From positions 1-36,815 of IMG/VR virus record IMGVR_UViG_2617270943_000002: DNA of 36,815 bases; one strand, written 5' to 3'. Numbering within the stretch: position 1 is the stretch's first letter; every line of letters starts with the position of its first letter. Positions 1,301 to 17,224 of this stretch are shown in pieces. The notes under the pieces are model-generated. The model was not told the origin of the DNA, did not search any database, and saw only the letters and a list, made by a program, of their open reading frames with translations. Origin of the DNA: a virus (Duplodnaviria > Heunggongvirae > Uroviricota > Caudoviricetes). The translations under genes were made by a program, and so were the position numbers.

Positions 1301-1332
1301 GTGATCTTTATCGAATAATACACGAGGTGAAA

Positions 1333-3939
1333 ATGAATAAGTTATTCATAAATCATATCAACGAAAATTATATTCAGATAAGTCATCGTTCATCTTTTAA
1401 TTGCAATACTGAATTGTTTAACGCAACTGTATCAGTTGGTAAGTCGCTTGAGGATTTAATCTGCGCTTGTCGGTCTCTGAGTATAGAAGGTGCGGATGGT
1501 AACAATTTAAGCATTATAACTAGCAGCCTGAAGAAAAAACTAAGAGAGCTTGTTGTTACAAATTTTCCCTTAACAAAAGTCTACCAACAAACAGAATTTG
1601 GTCCTGGAGTAAAACAAGAAGAAATCAACTCATCTTCTATGATAATTCAAATATTTCAATTTTACCTAGGGGCGATATCTAATTGTGATATCATATTACA
1701 TCTCAAATTTTTTGTTGAAAGCCTTTCTATTACGGAGTCATTTGTTGGCAAACCCCCAAAAACTCTTTTACATGAATATTTCCAAAGACATCAACACATA
1801 ATTCCTACATACAAAACCACCTTGGCTGGTGGGACCGAGCATGCACCAATATATGAGTCTGAAATAGCACTTCCTAATGGACAGATATTTATCGGAAGTG
1901 GTGAGAGTAAAAAAAAAGCAGAGAATAATGTTGCCAGTTTAGTTTGCAATCATTTGAATTTGAAAAACAATAAAAAACAAATATTAAAATCTAATAGTAT
2001 TATTTCAGCATGGGGTGGCGTACAGAAACCGAATGTTAAAGAGTGTTACATCAACAATGAATTGAACATGGCTTTTGGTTTTTCAAATAACTTTAATTCA
2101 ATCCAGGCTTTTATACCCCCTAGAATAAAGGGTAAAAATAGATCTATAAGTTCGCACAGAGATCTCGCTACTTTAGGTTCGCATTATATTTCCTTACTAG
2201 CTTCAGTAAGCCTACTTGAGATAATAAAAAATGGACAGAATGTTATTGACAGAACTACGTTAGGGATCATGGTGTTATCTGAAAAAAACTTTATGAGATT
2301 CTATAACTCAGGTTTTATTTCAATAGATTCTCTCCCCTATAAAGGACATCCAGATTATACAACTATATCTTATTATGTAGATTGTATTCAGGCATTGTTT
2401 GGAATGTCTCTTCTAAATCTGATAACTAAAAATAGTAAAATTCAATATAATGAGTTAATTTGCTCTTCCTCTGCAACAAATTGGTTGTACAAAAGAATAA
2501 AAAACTATAATTTGGATGAAGAATCTAATAAAGATATTATACCGACACTGACTTTGCATAGAATGCAAAAATACGGATTTGTATTTAAACTTATAAAAAA
2601 TCTAGATGTATATCAGCTTGAAATAGCTCATATTCGTAATGGGGATAATTTTGTTATCTATGCAGATCCTCTAATTCAAACAAGAAAAGATGCGATGACT
2701 AGGCTTGCGGGAAGTTGCCTTAAAGCATTGGATAGACTTGAAGGTGTGTTTCTCGAACCTCCTAGGTCTGAAGATTCTAAAAAAAATCAAAAAAAATTGA
2801 TTTCATACTTACTTCGTAATATATCAGAAGACAGGCCAGTGGTCTTAAGTGAAGAGCAACTCTCCGTAATATCAAAGAAAAAAAATGAATACGTACAATA
2901 TGACTTTGATATGCTTAAAGAAAAATTCTTGTCACAAGAAATGAATTACCTTGAAGCTTCAGTTATATTATTTTTACTCCACCAAAAATTAATGTTGGTG
3001 GACGACAGCATTGATAATATTTGCTATCTATCGCTACCTATTTGGAGTGATCAAAATTCTCTTGACTACGATAATTTTAATGATTCATCTGCAGATGCAG
3101 ATGCAGATGCAGATAATCATGTAAATATAAATTTTATTCTGGATTCCATTGAAGATTCCCAAGAAAAACAGTATATAAACTATGATAGCGCCGCTAAAGC
3201 CAGCAGTTTGGGTGAGATTTTATCAAGATATGATAGGTTAAATGCAGATTGTTTATCTCAATTATGGGATAAAAGGAAAAGTAGTTTTAAATACATTGAA
3301 GAAGCTGCAATAGTGCTCTCTAAAATTCGTTATGAGCGAGGATTAGATTTTAAGTTAATGAGTTACAAAAATTTTCTATCTACCAGCATGATTAAAGAAC
3401 TTCAACTTCCATCGTTTGATGAAGAAAACTCAAAACCCTTACAAATAAAGTCAGATTTACAGCTTGCAAAAGTAAAAAAACAATCTAAAAAAATATTTAG
3501 TGCTACTGAAAAATTTGATTTTTCAACAGCAGGGAGTTTTAAAATAAATAACTCTGATGAACGAAAGGTTATAAATAGAAACGTCACGATACGTATAGGT
3601 CAAAGCGACTTCAGAAATAAACTGATAAACGTTTGGGGGCAATGTGCCTTTACTGGGTGCAAAACAATAGCAGTACTTGATGCAGCTCATATTTATCCTT
3701 ACAGAGGAGATAAGGATAATCATATAAAAAATGGCTTGTTATTGCGTACTGATATACATCGTCTCTTTGATAACTATCTAATATCTATTGACCCAGCGAC
3801 TTTAAGGATTCACGTAAGTGATATGGTGCGCGATAGGTACTATCAGGAGCTGAATGGTGTCCTATTGAGGGACAAGGTTGGGTTGTCTATGCAAGCTCTA
3901 GAATACCATTGGTTTTATTTTACATCACAGGGTGATTAG
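1333..3939 (+). CDS. Large AT-rich protein with a dsRBD-like region (approx. aa 143-212) and a C-terminal HNH nuclease domain; function unknown, candidate defense nuclease
   Basis: ORF 1327(GTG)/1333(ATG)..3939 with GAGGTG RBS just upstream; dsRBM-like motif PPKTLLHEYFQ...PTYK...GGTEHAPIYESEIALPNGQIFIGSGESKKKAENNVASLV; HNH_2-like motif CAFTGCKTIAVLDAAHIYPYRGDKDNHIKNGLLLRTDIHRLFDNYLISIDP near the C-terminus; codon composition very AT-rich relative to the flanking phage genes. Confidence 0.6.
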   Translation: MNKLFINHINENYIQISHRSSFNCNTELFNATVSVGKSLEDLICACRSLSIEGADGNNLSIITSSLKKKLRELVVTNFPLTKVYQQTEFGPGVKQEEINSSSMIIQIFQFYLGAISNCDIILHLKFFVESLSITESFVGKPPKTLLHEYFQRHQHIIPTYKTTLAGGTEHAPIYESEIALPNGQIFIGSGESKKKAENNVASLVCNHLNLKNNKKQILKSNSIISAWGGVQKPNVKECYINNELNMAFGFSNNFNSIQAFIPPRIKGKNRSISSHRDLATLGSHYISLLASVSLLEIIKNGQNVIDRTTLGIMVLSEKNFMRFYNSGFISIDSLPYKGHPDYTTISYYVDCIQALFGMSLLNLITKNSKIQYNELICSSSATNWLYKRIKNYNLDEESNKDIIPTLTLHRMQKYGFVFKLIKNLDVYQLEIAHIRNGDNFVIYADPLIQTRKDAMTRLAGSCLKALDRLEGVFLEPPRSEDSKKNQKKLISYLLRNISEDRPVVLSEEQLSVISKKKNEYVQYDFDMLKEKFLSQEMNYLEASVILFLLHQKLMLVDDSIDNICYLSLPIWSDQNSLDYDNFNDSSADADADADNHVNINFILDSIEDSQEKQYINYDSAAKASSLGEILSRYDRLNADCLSQLWDKRKSSFKYIEEAAIVLSKIRYERGLDFKLMSYKNFLSTSMIKELQLPSFDEENSKPLQIKSDLQLAKVKKQSKKIFSATEKFDFSTAGSFKINNSDERKVINRNVTIRIGQSDFRNKLINVWGQCAFTGCKTIAVLDAAHIYPYRGDKDNHIKNGLLLRTDIHRLFDNYLISIDPATLRIHVSDMVRDRYYQELNGVLLRDKVGLSMQALEYHWFYFTSQGD
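3091..3114 (+). repeat. Hexanucleotide microsatellite (GCAGAT)x4 inside the 870-aa ORF, encoding ADADADAD
   Basis: gcagatgcagatgcagatgcagat read directly. Confidence 0.9.
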
Positions 3940-7844: not shown

Positions 7845-8519
7845 TTAGGCCTTTATTGTGTATCTTCTTGGTTTTCCCGAGAAAATCACTGTACCAATTA
7901 TAGAGCAATTACCGTTAATCTTAATGTAAGGCTCAGGCCAGTTTGGGTTTAATGCTTTGAGATAACGCTGTGTTCCATCTTCTATCAATCGCTTGAAGGT
8001 GGTTTCGCCTGTATCGTGCATCAATGCAATAACGTCGTCACCGTGGCAGGCAGGGACTTCGGGATCAACAAAAATCATGTCTCCAGGGCGGTACTCATCA
8101 ATCATTGAATCACCAATCACCCGCAAGATATAAGTCATTTCGCCACAGGGTACAGGGCAGGGATACGTTTCTGCTGTGCTCAAATCAACCTCAGAATAGC
8201 CAACTTCTTTCCATGCTCCGGCCTGTACCCATGATATGACAGGGACTAACGTTATTTGTTTGTTAGTGATTGAAACATCAGGTTTTTTTGTGATGTTCGT
8301 TGTCTGGTGTTCTTGATCAAGCCATCCGACAGGCAGGTCGAAACATTTTTCGATGTGCCGTGCCATGCTGTCACCGATATTTTTAGTAGCGCCATCCCCC
8401 ATAAACCTGCTGGTTTGGGTTGGCTCGCGATCAATCATGGTGGCAAAGGATGAATTTCCGCCAACACCATCTCTCAGTTTTCTGGCGTTAGACCGCCGGA
8501 TGTCATGGATTGTTTTCAT
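7845..8519 (-). CDS. cI: CI-type repressor (N-terminal HTH, C-terminal S24/LexA-like autopeptidase domain)
   Basis: 224 aa; C-terminal domain contains a GDSM motif consistent with the S24 peptidase Ser; divergent from the cro-like gene across an operator-bearing intergenic region. Confidence 0.8.
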   Translation of the reverse strand: MKTIHDIRRSNARKLRDGVGGNSSFATMIDREPTQTSRFMGDGATKNIGDSMARHIEKCFDLPVGWLDQEHQTTNITKKPDVSITNKQITLVPVISWVQAGAWKEVGYSEVDLSTAETYPCPVPCGEMTYILRVIGDSMIDEYRPGDMIFVDPEVPACHGDDVIALMHDTGETTFKRLIEDGTQRYLKALNPNWPEPYIKINGNCSIIGTVIFSGKPRRYTIKA

Positions 8520-8535
8520 AACGAAATTAAAACCT

Positions 8536-8604
8536 TTGTACCGATAAGGTACAAGTATCTTGAAGGTTCATTTCAATCATGTAATATGTATACCGGAGGT
8601 ACAT
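8536..8604. promoter_or_regulatory. OR-like operator region: two 19-bp imperfect palindromes between cI and cro
   Basis: TTGTACCGATAAGGTACAA (8536-8554; 7-bp inverted arms) and ATGTATACCGGAGGTACAT (8586-8604); the GGTACA arm recurs at the site left of cI. Confidence 0.5.
8560..8587 (+). promoter_or_regulatory. PR-like promoter for cro (-35 TTGAAG, 16-bp spacer, -10 TAATAT)
   Basis: Hexamers read directly; the second operator palindrome overlaps the -10 and predicted start site. Confidence 0.45.
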
Positions 8605-8609
8605 ATTGT

Positions 8610-8810
8610 ATGAAAGCGTATTGGGACTCTTTAACCAAAGAACAGCAGGGCGAGTTGGCCGGAAAAGTTGGCTCAACACCTGGCTACTTACGGCTGGTTT
8701 TCAATGGTTATAAAAAAGCCAGTTTTGTGCTGGCGAAAAAACTTGAGCAATGCACGTCAGGTGCAATTACGAAATCTGACTTAAGACCGGATATCTATCC
8801 GAAAGATTAA
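8610..8810 (+). CDS. cro: Cro-like HTH regulator (66 aa)
   Basis: ATG 8610 preceded by GGAGG; small protein MKAYWDSLTKEQQGELAGKVGSTPGYLRLVFNGYKK... divergent from cI. Confidence 0.6.
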   Translation: MKAYWDSLTKEQQGELAGKVGSTPGYLRLVFNGYKKASFVLAKKLEQCTSGAITKSDLRPDIYPKD

Positions 8811-8841
8811 CAGAACACCTTCAATTTTTAACCACAGAACG

Positions 8842-9405
8842 ATGAGGCTAACCGTGGGTAAGTATCACTGGAAAGTAGAAAAACAGCCTGAGTGGTACGT
8901 GAAAGCTGTCAGAAAAACTATCGCAGCGTTGCCGGGTGGTTACGCTGAAGCAGCTGACTGGCTGGATGTAACAGAGAACGCATTATTTAACCGCCTTCGT
9001 GCCTATGGCGATCAGATTTTCCCGCTGGGATGGGCAATGGTTTTACAGCGCGCGGCTGGCACTCACTACATTGCGGATGCTGTCGCACAGTCTGCTGGTG
9101 GGGTGTTCGTATCGCTTCCTGAAATTGAGGAAGTAGAGAACGCCGATATAAACCAGCGCCTGCTGGAAGTCATTGAACAGATCGGCAGTTATTCAAAACA
9201 GATTCATTCAGCAATTGAAGACGGTGTAGTGGAACCGAATGAGAAGACAGCAATTAACGACGAGCTGTACCTCTCAATTTCGAAGCTGCAGGAGCATGCA
9301 GCACTGGTCTACAAAATTTTTTGCATTTCAGAAAGTAATGACGCCCGCGAGTGTGCAGCTCCGGGCGCCGTGGCGTGTCGTGACTGTGGAGAAACTAACG
9401 CATGA
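8842..9405 (+). CDS. Hypothetical protein at the cII position (187 aa); possible regulatory protein
   Basis: ORF directly downstream of cro; no motif recognised with certainty. Confidence 0.45.
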
Positions 9406-9740
9406 ACAGTTTAACAACACACTACCGTCGCTCGCAACTGATTGCGCTTCCTGTACCGGGTGGAAAAGCGAAGGTGGAGTATTGCTATGCAGTAAATGTA
9501 CCAGGTGACAGGGAAATTGTAACCCACAGCTTTGCAGAGTGGGCTGTGGGTGATTTCAACCGGCAGAAGGAGACAGTCCTTTGCGACAAGTTAACCGCTG
9601 GTTCAAAGATCACTACGGAGTGCCCGTCAGAGTCATTCGTTGGGAGCCGGAAACACAACGAGTTATCTACCTCCGCGAAGGCTATGAGCATGAGTGCTTC
9701 AGCCCGCTCGAACAGTTTCGTCGTAAATTCAGGGAAATAG
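9402..9740 (+). CDS. Hypothetical protein (112 aa)
   Basis: ORF overlapping the upstream stop by 4 nt; no recognisable motif; low confidence that it is expressed. Confidence 0.3.
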
Positions 9741-9749
9741 AGGTCGGTC

Positions 9750-10691
9750 ATGAGCACTAAATTAACCGGCTATGTATGGGATGGTTGCGCTGCATCAGGC
9801 ATGAAATTATCCAGCGTGGCAATTATGGCCCGCCTGGCTGATTTCAGTAATGACGAAGGTGTGTGCTGGCCATCAATTGAAACTATTGCCCGTCAGATTG
9901 GCGCGGGGATGAGTACCGTCAGGACGGCTATCGCACGGCTGGAAGCAGAAGGCTGGTTAACGCGTAAGGCGCGTCGCCAGGGTAACCGCAATGCGTCGAA
10001 TGTTTATCAGCTTAACGTTGCGAAGCTTCAGGCAGCGGCATTTTCTCAACTGTCAGATTCTGACCCGTCAAAATCTGACGCATCAAAATCTGACCCGTCA
10101 AAATTTGATGCGTCGAAATCTGGCAAAAAAGCGGGTTTTCACCCGTCAGAATCTGGCGGGGATCCGTCAGTAAAATCAAAACATGATCCGTTAGATAAAA
10201 AACCTTCTCGTCCGGACGCTTCGCAACCGGACACGCAGACGGATGAACAGGATTTTTTAACTCGCCATCCTGATGCGGTTGTATTCAGCCCTAAAAAGCG
10301 CCAGTGGGGAACGCAGGATGATTTGACCTGCGCACAGTGGCTCTGGAAAAAAATCATTGCCCTGTACGAGCAGGCCGCCGAATGTGACGGCGAGGTGGTT
10401 CGTCCCAAAGAACCGAACTGGACAGCATGGGCAAACGAAATTCGCCTGATGTGTGTGCAGGATGGTCGTACTCACAAACAAATCTGCGAGATGTACAGCC
10501 GCGTCAGCCGCGATCCGTTCTGGTGCCGTAACGTGCTCAGCCCGTCGAAGTTGCGGGAAAAATGGGATGAGCTTTCCCTGCGCTTATCGCCGTCCGTCAG
10601 CACGCACACAGAAAAACGTGAAGACCCGTACTTCAAAGCCAGTTACGACAACGTGGACTACAGCCAGATCCCGGCAGGATTCAGGGGGTGA
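9750..10691 (+). CDS. Replication initiation protein, O-like (N-terminal HTH, internal iteron-encoded linker, C-terminal DnaT-like region)
   Basis: 313 aa; the central region encodes the pentapeptide repeats SDPSK/SDASK/SDPSK/FDASK from 15-bp DNA iterons; position equivalent to lambda O. Confidence 0.65.
   Translation: MSTKLTGYVWDGCAASGMKLSSVAIMARLADFSNDEGVCWPSIETIARQIGAGMSTVRTAIARLEAEGWLTRKARRQGNRNASNVYQLNVAKLQAAAFSQLSDSDPSKSDASKSDPSKFDASKSGKKAGFHPSESGGDPSVKSKHDPLDKKPSRPDASQPDTQTDEQDFLTRHPDAVVFSPKKRQWGTQDDLTCAQWLWKKIIALYEQAAECDGEVVRPKEPNWTAWANEIRLMCVQDGRTHKQICEMYSRVSRDPFWCRNVLSPSKLREKWDELSLRLSPSVSTHTEKREDPYFKASYDNVDYSQIPAGFRG
10059..10118 (+). repeat. Four tandem 15-bp iterons (TCTGACCCGTCAAAA-like) inside the O-like gene; putative phage origin of replication
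   Basis: TCTGACCCGTCAAAA / TCTGACGCATCAAAA / TCTGACCCGTCAAAA / TTTGATGCGTCGAAA read directly; degenerate copies flank both sides (about 10050-10170). Confidence 0.6.
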
Positions 10692-11182
10692 TCATGAGTC
10701 TTTTGAATGACGTTCAGAAATTCATTGAAGCCCATCCGGGCTGTACTTCCGGAGACATTGCGGATGCTTTTGCAGGTTACTCACGGCAGCGCGTTCTGCA
10801 GTCAGCAAGCAAGTTACGTCAGAGTGGGCGTGTGGCTCACCGTTGTGAAGGAGATACACGCAGACATTTCCCGCGCCTGACTGAGAGAGCGCAGGAGCCG
10901 GAACCACAACCTGTTCGTGAAACCAGACCTGTGCGCAATTTCTATGTCGGCACTAACGATCCCCGGGTGATTTTGTGCCTGATCCGCCAGGCTGAAGAGC
11001 TAGAGTCCAGGGGCTTATACCGTCGTGCTGCAACCGTGTGGATGGCGGCATTCCGTGAAAGCCACTCCCAGCCAGAACGAAACAATTTTCTGGCGCATCG
11101 TGAACGGTGCTTACGGAAAAGCAGCAAGCGCGCTGCATCGGGTGAAGAGTGGTATCTGTCAGGGAATTACGTGGGGGCTTAA
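10688..11182 (+). CDS. PerC/ANR-like putative transcriptional regulator (164 aa)
   Basis: Contains ...RGLYRRAATVWMAAFRES... resembling the W/RRAA motif of PerC-type proteins; assignment tentative. Confidence 0.4.
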   Translation: MIMSLLNDVQKFIEAHPGCTSGDIADAFAGYSRQRVLQSASKLRQSGRVAHRCEGDTRRHFPRLTERAQEPEPQPVRETRPVRNFYVGTNDPRVILCLIRQAEELESRGLYRRAATVWMAAFRESHSQPERNNFLAHRERCLRKSSKRAASGEEWYLSGNYVGA

Positions 11183-11508
11183 TGACGACGTTAACTCAAT
11201 GCCAGCAGCAGGTGCTGGATATGCTGATTTCTTATCAGAAAGAACGTGGCTTCCCGCCAACCAATCAGGAGGTGGCAACCATGCTGGGATACCGTTCAGT
11301 GAATGCAGCGGTGGAGCATCTTCGCGCACTGGAGAAAAAAGGCGTCATCACGATAAAGCGTGGCGTGGCCCGGGGGATAACGCTTCATACCGCGGTGAAG
11401 GACGACGACAGCGAGGCGGTCGGGATTATCCGCTCACTGCTTGCCGGTGAGGAAAACGCAAGGCTGCGTGCAACCCACTGGTTACATGAGAGAGGCCTGA
11501 AAGCATGA
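11182..11508 (+). CDS. LexA N-terminal DNA-binding-domain-like protein lacking a peptidase domain (108 aa)
   Basis: MTTLTQCQQQVLDMLISYQKERGFPPTNQEVATMLGYRSVNAAVEHLRALEKKGVITIKRGVARGI closely parallels the LexA winged-helix domain; ATG overlaps the upstream stop (TAATG). Confidence 0.6.
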   Translation: MTTLTQCQQQVLDMLISYQKERGFPPTNQEVATMLGYRSVNAAVEHLRALEKKGVITIKRGVARGITLHTAVKDDDSEAVGIIRSLLAGEENARLRATHWLHERGLKA

Positions 11509-11894
11509 AGCTGATCCTGCCTTTTCCGCCCAGCGTGAACACGTACTGGCGACACCCCAACAAAGGGGCGTTTGCAGGTAAGAGCCTGATAAGCGCGGCG
11601 GGGCGAAAATTCCAGAGCGCGGCGTGTGCAGCAATAGTTGAGCAGTTACGTCGTCTGCCAAAACCAACGTCGGCACCTGCTTCAGTGGAGATCGTGTTGT
11701 TTCCTCCGGATAACCGGATCCGCGATCTGGACAACTATAACAAGGCGCTGTTTGACGCCCTGACCCACGCGGGTGTGTGGGAGGACGACAGTCAGGTGAA
11801 AAGAATGCTGGTTGAGTGGGGACCGGTTATCCCGAAAGGGAAGGTCGAGATCACTATCAGTAAGTATGAGAAACCGGCGGGTGCAGCCGCCTGA
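11505..11894 (+). CDS. rusA: RusA-family Holliday junction resolvase
   Basis: LPFPPSVNTYWRH... and DLDNYNKALFDALT motifs characteristic of RusA. Confidence 0.8.
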   Translation: MKLILPFPPSVNTYWRHPNKGAFAGKSLISAAGRKFQSAACAAIVEQLRRLPKPTSAPASVEIVLFPPDNRIRDLDNYNKALFDALTHAGVWEDDSQVKRMLVEWGPVIPKGKVEITISKYEKPAGAAA

Positions 11895-11913
11895 TTAAGA
11901 GGAGAAACGAAGT

Positions 11914-12723
11914 ATGAATAATCTGATGGTCATTGATGGTATTGAAGTTCGTCGTGATGCTTATGGGCGTTACAGCCTGAACGATCTGCATCGCGCAGCA
12001 GTAGCATCTGGTGCAAATGCCAGAACCAAGGAGCCGGGAAAGTTTCTTTCCAGCCAACAAACTGTTGAGCTTGTTCATGAATTGACCAACACCCAGAATT
12101 TGGGTGTTGACCCGGTGAGTGTGATTCATGGGGGAAATGAACGGGGAACGTATGTCTGCAAGGAACTGGTGTATGCCTATGCAATGTGGATCAGCCCGTC
12201 ATTCCATCTGAAGGTGATCCGTACTTTCGATATGGTAACCAGCGCACCGGAAAAATTATCCGGACAGGCTGCTGACAAGATGCAGGCTGGCGTGATCCTG
12301 CTGGACTTTATGCGCCGGGAGTTAAACCTGTCTAACTCTTCAGTGCTTGGTGCCTGTCAGAAACTCCAGGAGGCTGTTGGCTTACCGAATCTGGCACCGC
12401 GCTATGCCATTGATGCTCCTGCTGACGCGCCTGATGGCTCAAGCCGCCCCACGCTATCATTGAGTGCACTGCTGAAGCAGTATGGTATCCGCCTGACAGC
12501 TAATCAGGCATATCACCAGATGGCGAAGCTGGGGATCGTTGAACAACGTGAACGATACAGCCGCACTGCGATTAACAACATCAAAAAATTCTGGTCGCTG
12601 ACGGCGAAAGGCTGCATGTTCGGCAAGAACATCACCAGTCCCGCAAATCCGCGCGAGACGCAGCCGCATTTCTTCGAATCCCGATTCCCTGAGCTGTTAA
12701 AGCTGCTCGATACCGTTCATTGA
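11914..12723 (+). CDS. KilA-N domain protein (antirepressor-like)
   Basis: N-terminal KilA-N-like region (RYSLNDLHRA..., GTYVCKELVYAYAMWISPSFHLKV). Confidence 0.6.
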   Translation: MNNLMVIDGIEVRRDAYGRYSLNDLHRAAVASGANARTKEPGKFLSSQQTVELVHELTNTQNLGVDPVSVIHGGNERGTYVCKELVYAYAMWISPSFHLKVIRTFDMVTSAPEKLSGQAADKMQAGVILLDFMRRELNLSNSSVLGACQKLQEAVGLPNLAPRYAIDAPADAPDGSSRPTLSLSALLKQYGIRLTANQAYHQMAKLGIVEQRERYSRTAINNIKKFWSLTAKGCMFGKNITSPANPRETQPHFFESRFPELLKLLDTVH

Positions 12724-16171: not shown

Positions 16172-17224
16172 ATGAAAAATACTGTAAAAATAAACAGTGT
16201 TGATTTAATCAACGCTGATTGCCTGCATTTTATTCAGTCCCTGCCTGATGATTCCATTGACCTGATTGTTACCGATCCGCCTTACTTCAAGGTGAAACCT
16301 AACGGTTGGGACAATCAGTGGAAAGGGGACGAAGATTACCTTAAGTGGCTGGACCACTGTCTGGCCCAGTTCTGGCGGGTGTTAAAACCTGCCGGAAGCC
16401 TTTACCTGTTCTGTGGGCATCGCCTGGCATCTGATATTGAGATCATGATGCGTGAACGTTTCAACGTGCTTAACCATATCATCTGGGCGAAGCCGTCCGG
16501 ACGTTGGAATGGGTGTAATAAAGAAAGTCTGCGCGCATATTTTCCTGCCACAGAGCGCGTTCTGTTTGCTGAACATTACCAGGGGCCATATCGCGGCAAA
16601 AGTGACGGCTATGCGGCAAAAGAAAGGGAACTCAAACAGCACATAATGGCACCGCTGATATCGTATTTCAGGGATGCTCGTGCCGAACTAGGGATAACGG
16701 CAAAACAAATTGCCGAAGCCACAGGTAAGAAAAATATGGTTTCCCACTGGTTTGGTGCCAGTCAGTGGCAGTTGCCGAATGAGGCTGACTATCGGAAGTT
16801 ACAGGCACTGTTTTCCCGTATAGCGGCAGAGAAGTTTCAGGAACAACAACTGGAACAACCACACCACCAGCTGGTGGCGTCTTATGATTCACTGAATCGC
16901 AAATATTCTGAATTGCTGGATGAGTTTAAATCTCTCCGGCGCTATTTCTCCGTATCAGTCTCCGTGCCTTATACCGATGTCTGGATGCATAAACCCGTTC
17001 AGTTCTACCCGGGTAAACATCCGTGTGAGAAACCGGCGGATATGCTCAGGCAAATAATCAATGCCAGTAGTCGACCTGGTGATCTGGTTGCTGATTTTTT
17101 TATGGGATCCGGTTCCACAATAAAAGCAGCAATGGCGCTGGGGCGTCGGGCCTTAGGTGTTGAGCTTGAGTCAGAGCGGTTTAACCAGACAGTGAAAGAG
17201 ATAAACGAGCTGGTGGGGAAATAA
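16172..17224 (+). CDS. DNA methyltransferase (beta-class amino-MTase; DPPY motif precedes FxGxG SAM-binding motif); N6-adenine or N4-cytosine specific
   Basis: IVTDPPYF near the N-terminus and DFFMGSGST near the C-terminus. Confidence 0.8.

Follow-up and report, generated by a model that had tools for sequence, protein, structure and literature searches.

A candidate replication origin of palindromic sites inside the O-like initiator gene of SfII/SfIV-type lambdoid prophages

We analysed a window of 36,815 nucleotides, positions 1 to 36,815 of the virus record IMGVR_UViG_2617270943_000002 (Caudoviricetes), which carries a gene for an O-like replication initiator with an array of short repeats inside its coding sequence. 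An earlier note, made from the letters alone, had described four tandem 15-bp direct repeats in this gene, with degenerate copies on each side and an SDPSK-type pentapeptide as their product, and had proposed the segment between 10050 and 10170 as a putative prophage origin (all positions are those of the window). The repeats themselves are borne out by Tandem Repeats Finder and by shuffled controls. The program returned a single array at 10059-10122, with a period of 15, 4.3 copies, 81% matches and the consensus TCTGACCCGTCAAAA, and a period of 30 scores higher for the same array (88% matches). At up to three mismatches, the 15-mer occurs five times in the 36.8-kb window, always inside 10059-10151, when 0.94 occurrences are expected from shuffling and five were reached in 0 of 100 shuffles. 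The array is in frame within the open reading frame (ORF) and does encode a pentapeptide series of the type described, SDPSK-SDASK-SDPSK-FDASK; the degenerate copies were found as well, at 10038-10067 and 10131-10160.

The count of four direct repeats did not stand, because inverted-repeat analysis resolves six dyad sites of 13 bp. Each 15-bp unit contains an inverted repeat that forms the palindrome GTCA-N5-TGAC, which takes the form GTCA-RAWTY-TGAC in the group of relatives to which the window belongs. Five of the sites follow each other in the 15-bp register (10052-10124), separated by gaps of 2 bp, and the sixth is an extended palindrome (Table 1). Using the shifted 13-mer CCGTCARAWTCTG at up to two mismatches, we found 16 occurrences against 3.0 expected, ten of which fall in 10050-10160, and the copies of the site motif elsewhere in the window are only chance-level matches. 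Since the variable third codon of the unit corresponds to the 2-3 bp between palindromes, a 13-bp palindrome describes the recognition unit better than a 15-bp direct repeat does. Site 6 is the best conserved site of the family, with 80-99% conservation in an anchored consensus built from 76 different segments. In other frames, two ORFs of 55-60 aa, at 9991-10173 (+) and 10012-10179 (-), also cross the array and have repetitive peptides of their own; they are by-products of the repeats and not genes.

The right end proposed for the element also had to be moved, because the conserved DNA continues beyond the repeats to ca. 10232. The candidate origin thus spans ca. 180 bp, from 10052 to 10232, and consists of the sites, followed by an A/T-rich tract and then by a GC-rich palindrome. 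The least stable 30-mer of the gene, 10171-10200 (-33.0 kcal/mol, 77% A+T, 96.7th percentile of the window), lies 11 bp to the right of the last dyad site. For comparison, we collected related loci, 80 from genomes and a few via protein look-ups, ca. 75 of which entered the locus counts. The core has a layout of two GATC sites ca. 24 bp apart, TCAAAACATGATCC, and then the GC-rich palindrome; GATC occurs in the window at 10161 and 10185, the first of these is present in 74/74 loci, and 67 of 74 loci contain at least two within 50 nt. The right-hand element shows a third-position conservation of 0.81, is conserved between groups of relatives and forms the right edge of the conserved module. Neither the DnaA-box consensus TTWTNCACA in 8000-12500, nor a sigma-70 promoter above chance in 8400-10800, nor a switch of GC skew at the candidate origin was found.

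Table 1. Coordinates of the initiator gene and of the elements of the candidate origin in the window
Feature	Position	Strand	Sequence or remark	Basis
O-like replication initiator gene	9750..10691	+	313 aa	ORF; Pfam, PHROG, BLASTP, AlphaFold2
Dyad site 1	10052..10064	.	GTCAGATTCTGAC	Sequence, inverted repeats
Dyad site 2	10067..10079	.	GTCAAAATCTGAC	Sequence, inverted repeats, 13-mer scan
Dyad site 3	10082..10094	.	ATCAAAATCTGAC	Inverted repeats, 13-mer scan
Dyad site 4	10097..10109	.	GTCAAAATTTGAT	Inverted repeats, 13-mer scan
Dyad site 5	10112..10124	.	GTCGAAATCTGGC; most degenerate in the 15-bp register	
Site 6, terminal extended palindrome	10142..10160	.	CCCGTCAGAATCTGGCGGG; 33 bp past site 5	
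GATC-flanked A/T-rich core	10161..10200	.	GATCCGTCAGTAAAATCAAAACATGATCCGTTAGATAAAA; candidate unwinding element	
Right-hand element	10204..10232	.	Palindrome CGTCCGGACG (10209-10218); direct repeat of CCGGAC, copies 15 bp apart	

The deduced product matches PHROG 391 ('replication initiation O-like') over its whole length, with E=1e-135. In BLASTP comparisons with lambda O (E=6e-26, 31% identity over 216 residues), residues 70-277 of the window protein align with residues 78-270 of lambda O, a match that spans the linker and the whole C-terminal domain, which in lambda is the P-interacting half. BLASTP detects no similarity to lambda O in the N-terminal part, where Pfam instead places HTH_36 at residues 23-70 (E=4e-11), along with weaker matches to winged-helix families; the protein has no Pfam match to Phage_rep_O PF04492, to which lambda O matches with E=6e-36. 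The C-terminal half is homologous to that of lambda O, and the N-terminal domain belongs to another family. An AlphaFold2 model, built with a 28-sequence alignment, comprises a winged-helix domain (residues 1-100), a stretch with a predicted local distance difference test (pLDDT) score below 50 (residues 103-166) and a helical C-terminal domain (residues 185-282). Because the predicted disorder covers residues 103-166, the six sites (codons 101-137) and the A/T-rich core (tract at codons 141-150) are placed wholly in the segment coding for the linker. In Foldseek comparisons the N-terminal domain resembles dimeric DNA binders of the MarR type, weakly (E ~3e-3), and a sequence search of solved structures and of NCBIfam gave only generic winged-helix matches. 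The protein ends in a tail, ...IPxGFRG* (window 10650-10688), common to the group B and C relatives described below and also present in relatives with a C-terminus of the Phg_2220_C type (VPQGFRGHE*, IPDGFRGATS*); the unrelated DUF1376 protein YdaU of the K-12 Rac prophage (locus L086, 5950-5977) likewise ends in IPPGFRG*. This tail may be a short motif for docking to a host partner that these proteins share.

The array shows clear signs of selection at the nucleotide level. All full-length relatives contain a 15-bp (pentapeptide) array right after the winged-helix domain, with 0 to ca. 10 units. We examined codon usage in 324 repeat units from the 51 loci that remained after de-duplication at 95% nucleotide identity, taking the rest of the same genes as background. 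Serine is encoded by TCT in 184 of 201 cases at unit position 1 (background 12%) and by TCA in 269/292 at position 4 (background 20%), so that 92% of the serine codons in the units are TCT or TCA (background 12-20%). At position 5, lysine is always AAA (172/172; background 66%) and glutamate always GAA (93/93; background 57%), while aspartate at position 2 is GAC in 185 of 223 units (background 47%). Moreover, the residue swaps seen at position 5 (K, E, N, D) preserve the bases R-A-W. Among diverged pairs, codon identity at shared degenerate residues is 0.847 in the terminal block, which we defined as the 13 codons that span the terminal palindrome and the GxDPSV block, versus 0.386 in the winged-helix domain. 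Likewise, in 15 full-length homologues from three subgroups, third-position conservation reaches 0.78-0.81 at 10140-10230 versus ca. 0.55 elsewhere, and in that segment third positions are conserved equally to first and second positions. Since a peptide linker cannot produce such synonymous constraint, these sequence comparisons show that selection acts on the DNA and not on the encoded peptide, and the SDPSK pentapeptide repeat would be a by-product of 15-bp sites kept in frame.

The sequence of the sites differs among relatives and appears to follow the winged-helix domain. Group A, which includes the window, has the recognition helix STVRTAI and sites GTCA-RAWTY-TGAC, with 2.35 copies of the motif per linker and none in 466 kb of flanking DNA; in a Providencia/Proteus subgroup, the helix is STVRTAIK and the sites end in TGTY. 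Group B has the helix TV[SK]AAI, sites TTGA-SSSS-YYAA and the terminal palindrome GGGGTCAATGGTTGACCCC, and group C has the helix STVI, sites GTTCA-N5-TGAAC and the terminal palindrome GTCCAGAATCTGGAC. The helix of phage phiP27 is also STVRTAI, yet its sites are TTCA-N5-TGAA, spaced by 15, 15, 33 and 32 bp. The more distant Min27 contains three copies of GGGGCAGGAGCTGCCC at 21 and 24 bp, and a Vibrio phage relative contains GGTCAAATTCCGACC at 17 and 22 bp, from which no peptide repeat results. In its own group, each motif has two to three copies per linker, with essentially none in the other groups, and we detected no further copies within 4 kb either side of the related loci. In spite of the differing repeats, the core from 10161 to ca. 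10232 is common to groups A, B, C and phiP27. Where a Phg_2220_C domain takes the place of the C-terminal domain, the array and the core remain linked to the N-terminal domain, and the exchange point lies just past the encoded QPD, at ca. 10232; accordingly, the group A array is found with both lambda-O-type and Phg_2220_C C-termini. This co-variation of site sequence with winged-helix subtype, and not with the C-terminal domain, is supportive but not conclusive.

We consider that 10052-10232 is probably the replication origin of an SfII/SfIV-type lambdoid prophage, placed inside its own initiator gene, and assign to this reading a probability of roughly 0.78. Every feature of a lambda-type origin that could be tested at the sequence level is present, the synonymous constraint and the co-variation among them, which lends support to what the earlier note had put forward. 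The dyad sites, the A/T-rich tract, the selection on DNA and the linkage of sites to subtype are apparent from the sequence comparisons, whereas binding by the initiator, unwinding and helicase loading are what we infer from them. In the mechanism that we propose, dimers of the N-terminal winged-helix domain would bind the six sites; neighbouring sites, being 15 bp (~1.4 helical turns) apart, would lie on roughly opposite faces of the helix. The resulting complex, similar to the lambda O-some and formed on supercoiled DNA, would melt the adjoining GATC-flanked A/T-rich tract, and the lambda-O-like C-terminal domain would recruit the host DnaB helicase. Because there is no P-like or DnaC-like loader beside the gene, DnaB would probably depend on host DnaC for its loading, or load directly. 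As in lambda, the site would be traversed by transcription running rightward from the cro/cII operon.

The invariant GATC and the frequent presence nearby of a gene for a Dam-like methylase, which occurs at most 2.5 kb downstream of the initiator in 37/75 related loci, suggest that methylation matters at the core. The Dam-like gene belongs to PF05869 (for example, L088 4351-5004 and L089 3944-4597 among the related loci); the window has no PF05869 gene and contains instead an N6_N4 DNA methylase at 16172-17224. A rather speculative possibility, which we would not favour on the sequences at hand, is that the ca. 70-90 bp from 10161 to 10232 form an element for unwinding or helicase entry that is independent of the initiator and gated by Dam methylation. 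If true, this would be a loader-less and methylation-controlled way of starting lambdoid replication, distinct from the lambda O-P-DnaB route.

It is less likely that the sites bind the initiator for regulation only, by autorepression, titration, handcuffing or as a transcription roadblock, with initiation taking place elsewhere. Plasmid iteron arrays also act in copy control, regulatory binding would explain the DNA-level conservation of the six sites equally well, and the A/T-rich tract is only moderately unstable. However, the array is contiguous with the conserved A/T-rich/GATC core and the right palindrome and, as this core is common to groups with differing sites, an unwinding or loading element fits it better than an operator. 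In layout and position the element also parallels ori-lambda, and the protein encoded by the gene is homologous to O in its C-terminal half; the motif is absent from the 4-kb flanks of the related loci and, beyond chance level, from the rest of the window.

We regard as somewhat more improbable still that the DNA is conserved for something other than the phage initiator, be it an mRNA structure controlling the translation of the gene, a host protein such as SeqA or Dam at the GATCs, or a recombination hotspot for module exchange. The region folds much better than shuffled controls (z=-4.6 as RNA and z=-4.0 as single-stranded DNA), but such values follow from the DNA palindromes themselves, and the half-sites are conserved by sequence and not through compensatory change, a pattern that recognition by a protein would produce and RNA pairing would not. 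The invariant GATC and the Dam-like genes mentioned above would fit a host factor, and the exchange of C-terminal modules just to the right of the element would fit a hotspot; nevertheless, the site sequence tracks the recognition helix of the initiator itself, and a site for a host factor would not differ between groups in the same host, when E. coli carries groups A, B and C. Control by Dam or SeqA is, in any case, compatible with the origin model and not a rival to it. Finally, although the repeats keep the reading frame, fall within the predicted disordered segment and differ in copy number by multiples of five codons between close relatives, it is very improbable that they are only a flexible Ser/Asp/Lys-rich protein linker expanded by slippage, with a DNA similarity that stems from recent duplication, because this is contradicted by the codon analysis (codon choice is near fixed across genera whose synonymous sites are otherwise randomised, position-5 changes keep the R-A-W bases, and third positions are as conserved as first and second ones in 10140-10230) and because the palindromes of the Vibrio relative, at 17/22 bp, give no peptide repeat.

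Several observations weigh against an origin at 10052-10232. The A/T-rich tract is shorter and less extreme than that of lambda, which is less stable (-30.3 kcal/mol per 30-mer versus -33.0 here). Co-variation between sites and winged-helix subtypes, as deduced from sequence, is based on a handful of groups and few independent events. The literature that we reached reports no experimental binding or origin activity for this initiator family. Pfam and PHROG comparisons disclose no P-like, DnaC-like or DnaB-like gene beside the initiator of the window, where the next genes, PerC-like, LexA-DNA-binding-like and RusA, include no cognate loader, and a P-like or DnaC-like loader was found within 2.5 kb in only 10/75 related loci; this scarcity of loader genes leaves the helicase-loading step unexplained. 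There are nonetheless relatives with lambda-P-like genes immediately downstream (PF06992, E=3e-58 and 7e-62), one relative whose initiator is followed by an IstB/DnaC-like gene, and phiP27, where it is followed by DnaC-like and DnaB-like genes. Lastly, rare variants from E. coli and a common one from Salmonella (151 index blocks) lack most of the array, owing to deletions of 78 and 93 nt that, from their sequence, arose by recombination between sites. These short variants retain one or two sites and the core, and site 6 is the only one left in the shortest. Either a long array is not obligatory or these prophages are replication-defective. They do not contradict the origin model, because two iterons and the A/T-rich tract were reported to be enough for unwinding and in vitro replication in lambda (PMC7466680).

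The initiator gene lies downstream of genes for a cI-like S24 repressor and for cro-like, CII-like and DUF4222 proteins, and upstream of PerC-like, LexA-DNA-binding-like, RusA, KilA-N and DUF968 genes. The first of the latter, at 10688-11182 (+), overlaps the initiator stop codon, corresponds to yfdN and has a PerC-like C-terminus and a weak match to a MarR-family PHROG at its N-terminus; yfdN-like genes follow the initiator in 19/75 related loci, and in most of these 19 the module lacks a P-like or DnaC-like loader. Directly after the integrase gene (1-1224), there is an ORF of 870 aa at 1327-3939 (+) with a double-stranded-RNA-binding motif (residues 144-210) and an HNH_2 nuclease domain (residues 773-822). 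Such a combination of domains is unusual at the end of a prophage, and the ORF could be a defence or accessory gene.

The initiator gene is 97-99% identical in the Shigella phages SfII and SfIV, which are viable phages, and in several induced E. coli phages. At a coverage of at least 80%, it is present in 1576 of 5426 complete E. coli genomes (ca. 29%), and the family extends to prophages across Enterobacterales. The copy in the CPS-53/KpLE1 element of K-12-type genomes (yfdO) matches only bases 234-942 of the query and lacks the first 233 nt of the gene; it has lost most of the winged-helix domain and kept the whole array and the core. By its sequence, the yfdO copy is a candidate orphan origin in laboratory strains of E. 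coli. Existing annotations name the product 'helix-turn-helix protein', 'primosomal protein' or 'O-like', and mark no origin. Likewise, the SfIV and SfI genome papers term the region a replication module and do not mention an origin or repeats, and we found no earlier description of the repeats in the literature, including by a search with the exact sequence.

Other leads were examined and set aside. Group B members occur in Rac-like ydaS-ydaT contexts, which pointed to oriJ of Rac, but YdaU of K-12 is a DUF1376 protein of another family and the 'oriJ' primers of PMC3945230 map inside ydaV, so the link to Rac was dropped. One source names a relative 'Replication protein 15', which brought gene 15 of phi80 into consideration, but phi80 was absent from the results of a tblastn search of the phage collection (E<=1e-8) and no link between the two was obtained. 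A paper on RepR of pIGRK proved to be unrelated.

The segment 10052-10232 is a candidate for the minimal replicon of a large group of prophages, including serotype-converting Shigella phages, and reading it as an origin would explain an otherwise odd pentapeptide repeat. Studies of initiator specificity and of replicon incompatibility could make use of the winged-helix domains and their matching sets of sites. The usefulness of this candidate origin derives from its being common yet unannotated, although it would hardly surprise a specialist in phage replication.

Among known systems, the same gene, array included, is found with 98-99% nucleotide identity in SfII, SfIV and the yfdO region of the K-12 element CPS-53 (KpLE1), and it is followed there by the same genes, for PerC-like YfdN, RusA, a KilA-N protein and a DUF968 protein. 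Iteron-containing theta plasmids, such as pSC101, R6K, RK2 and P1 (oriR), also have repeated initiator sites beside an A/T-rich unwinding element and a winged-helix initiator, and the GATC sites recall those of P1 oriR and oriC. Plasmid iterons, however, are direct repeats of ca. 17-22 bp, ca. two helical turns apart, which do not lie in the rep gene and as a rule occur together with DnaA boxes, whereas the sites described here are palindromic, have a 15-bp period, are intragenic and have no DnaA box in 8000-12500.

The closest parallel is with ori-lambda, as the earlier note had anticipated from the presence of iterons within O. The position of the array corresponds to that of the annotated lambda iterons, which occupy ca. 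codons 117-145 of O and are followed by an A/T-rich tract (anatomy in PMC7466680); in the window the sites span codons 101-137. In both cases, the initiator gene carries internally dyad sites midway along its length, between the parts for the DNA-binding and C-terminal domains, and these sites are followed by an A/T-rich tract and then by a palindrome, in a rightward early operon after cro and cII; the C-terminal halves of both initiators are homologous. Changes in the number of sites alter the number of residues of the protein, as they do in the O proteins of lambdoid Shiga toxin (Stx) phages, in which a change in repeat copy number accounts for 13 extra residues (PMC7466680). The two systems differ in that the N-terminal domain is HTH_36 here and Phage_rep_O PF04492 in lambda, and in that there are here six sites of 13 bp in a strict 15-bp in-frame register versus four of 18-19 bp spaced by 20-24 bp. 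Furthermore, and unlike lambda, the window has an extra palindromic site between the array and the A/T-rich tract, conserved GATC sites in the core and no P gene after the initiator.

When the DNA is aligned globally with ori-lambda, the result has meaning for one palindrome only. Lambda has, on the right of its A/T-rich tract (lambda 39162-39186, equivalent to L087 1163-1187), the palindrome TTCGTCAGAGAATTCTGGCGAATCC, whose 7-bp arms (CGTCAGA / TCTGGCG) are the same as those of the palindrome CCCGTCAGAATCTGGCGGGGATCC at 10142-10164 of the window, with a centre of 4 bp versus 1 bp in the window. A Providencia relative also has a lambda-like palindrome, CGTCGCAGAATTCTGACG, to the right of its core. 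As far as these sequences indicate, the likeness between the window and lambda palindromes may be due either to shared ancestry or to chance. The kind of origin proposed here is thus known from lambda, and what is new, as deduced from sequence, is a putative intragenic origin of the iteron type in a family of initiators with a DNA-binding domain other than that of lambda O.

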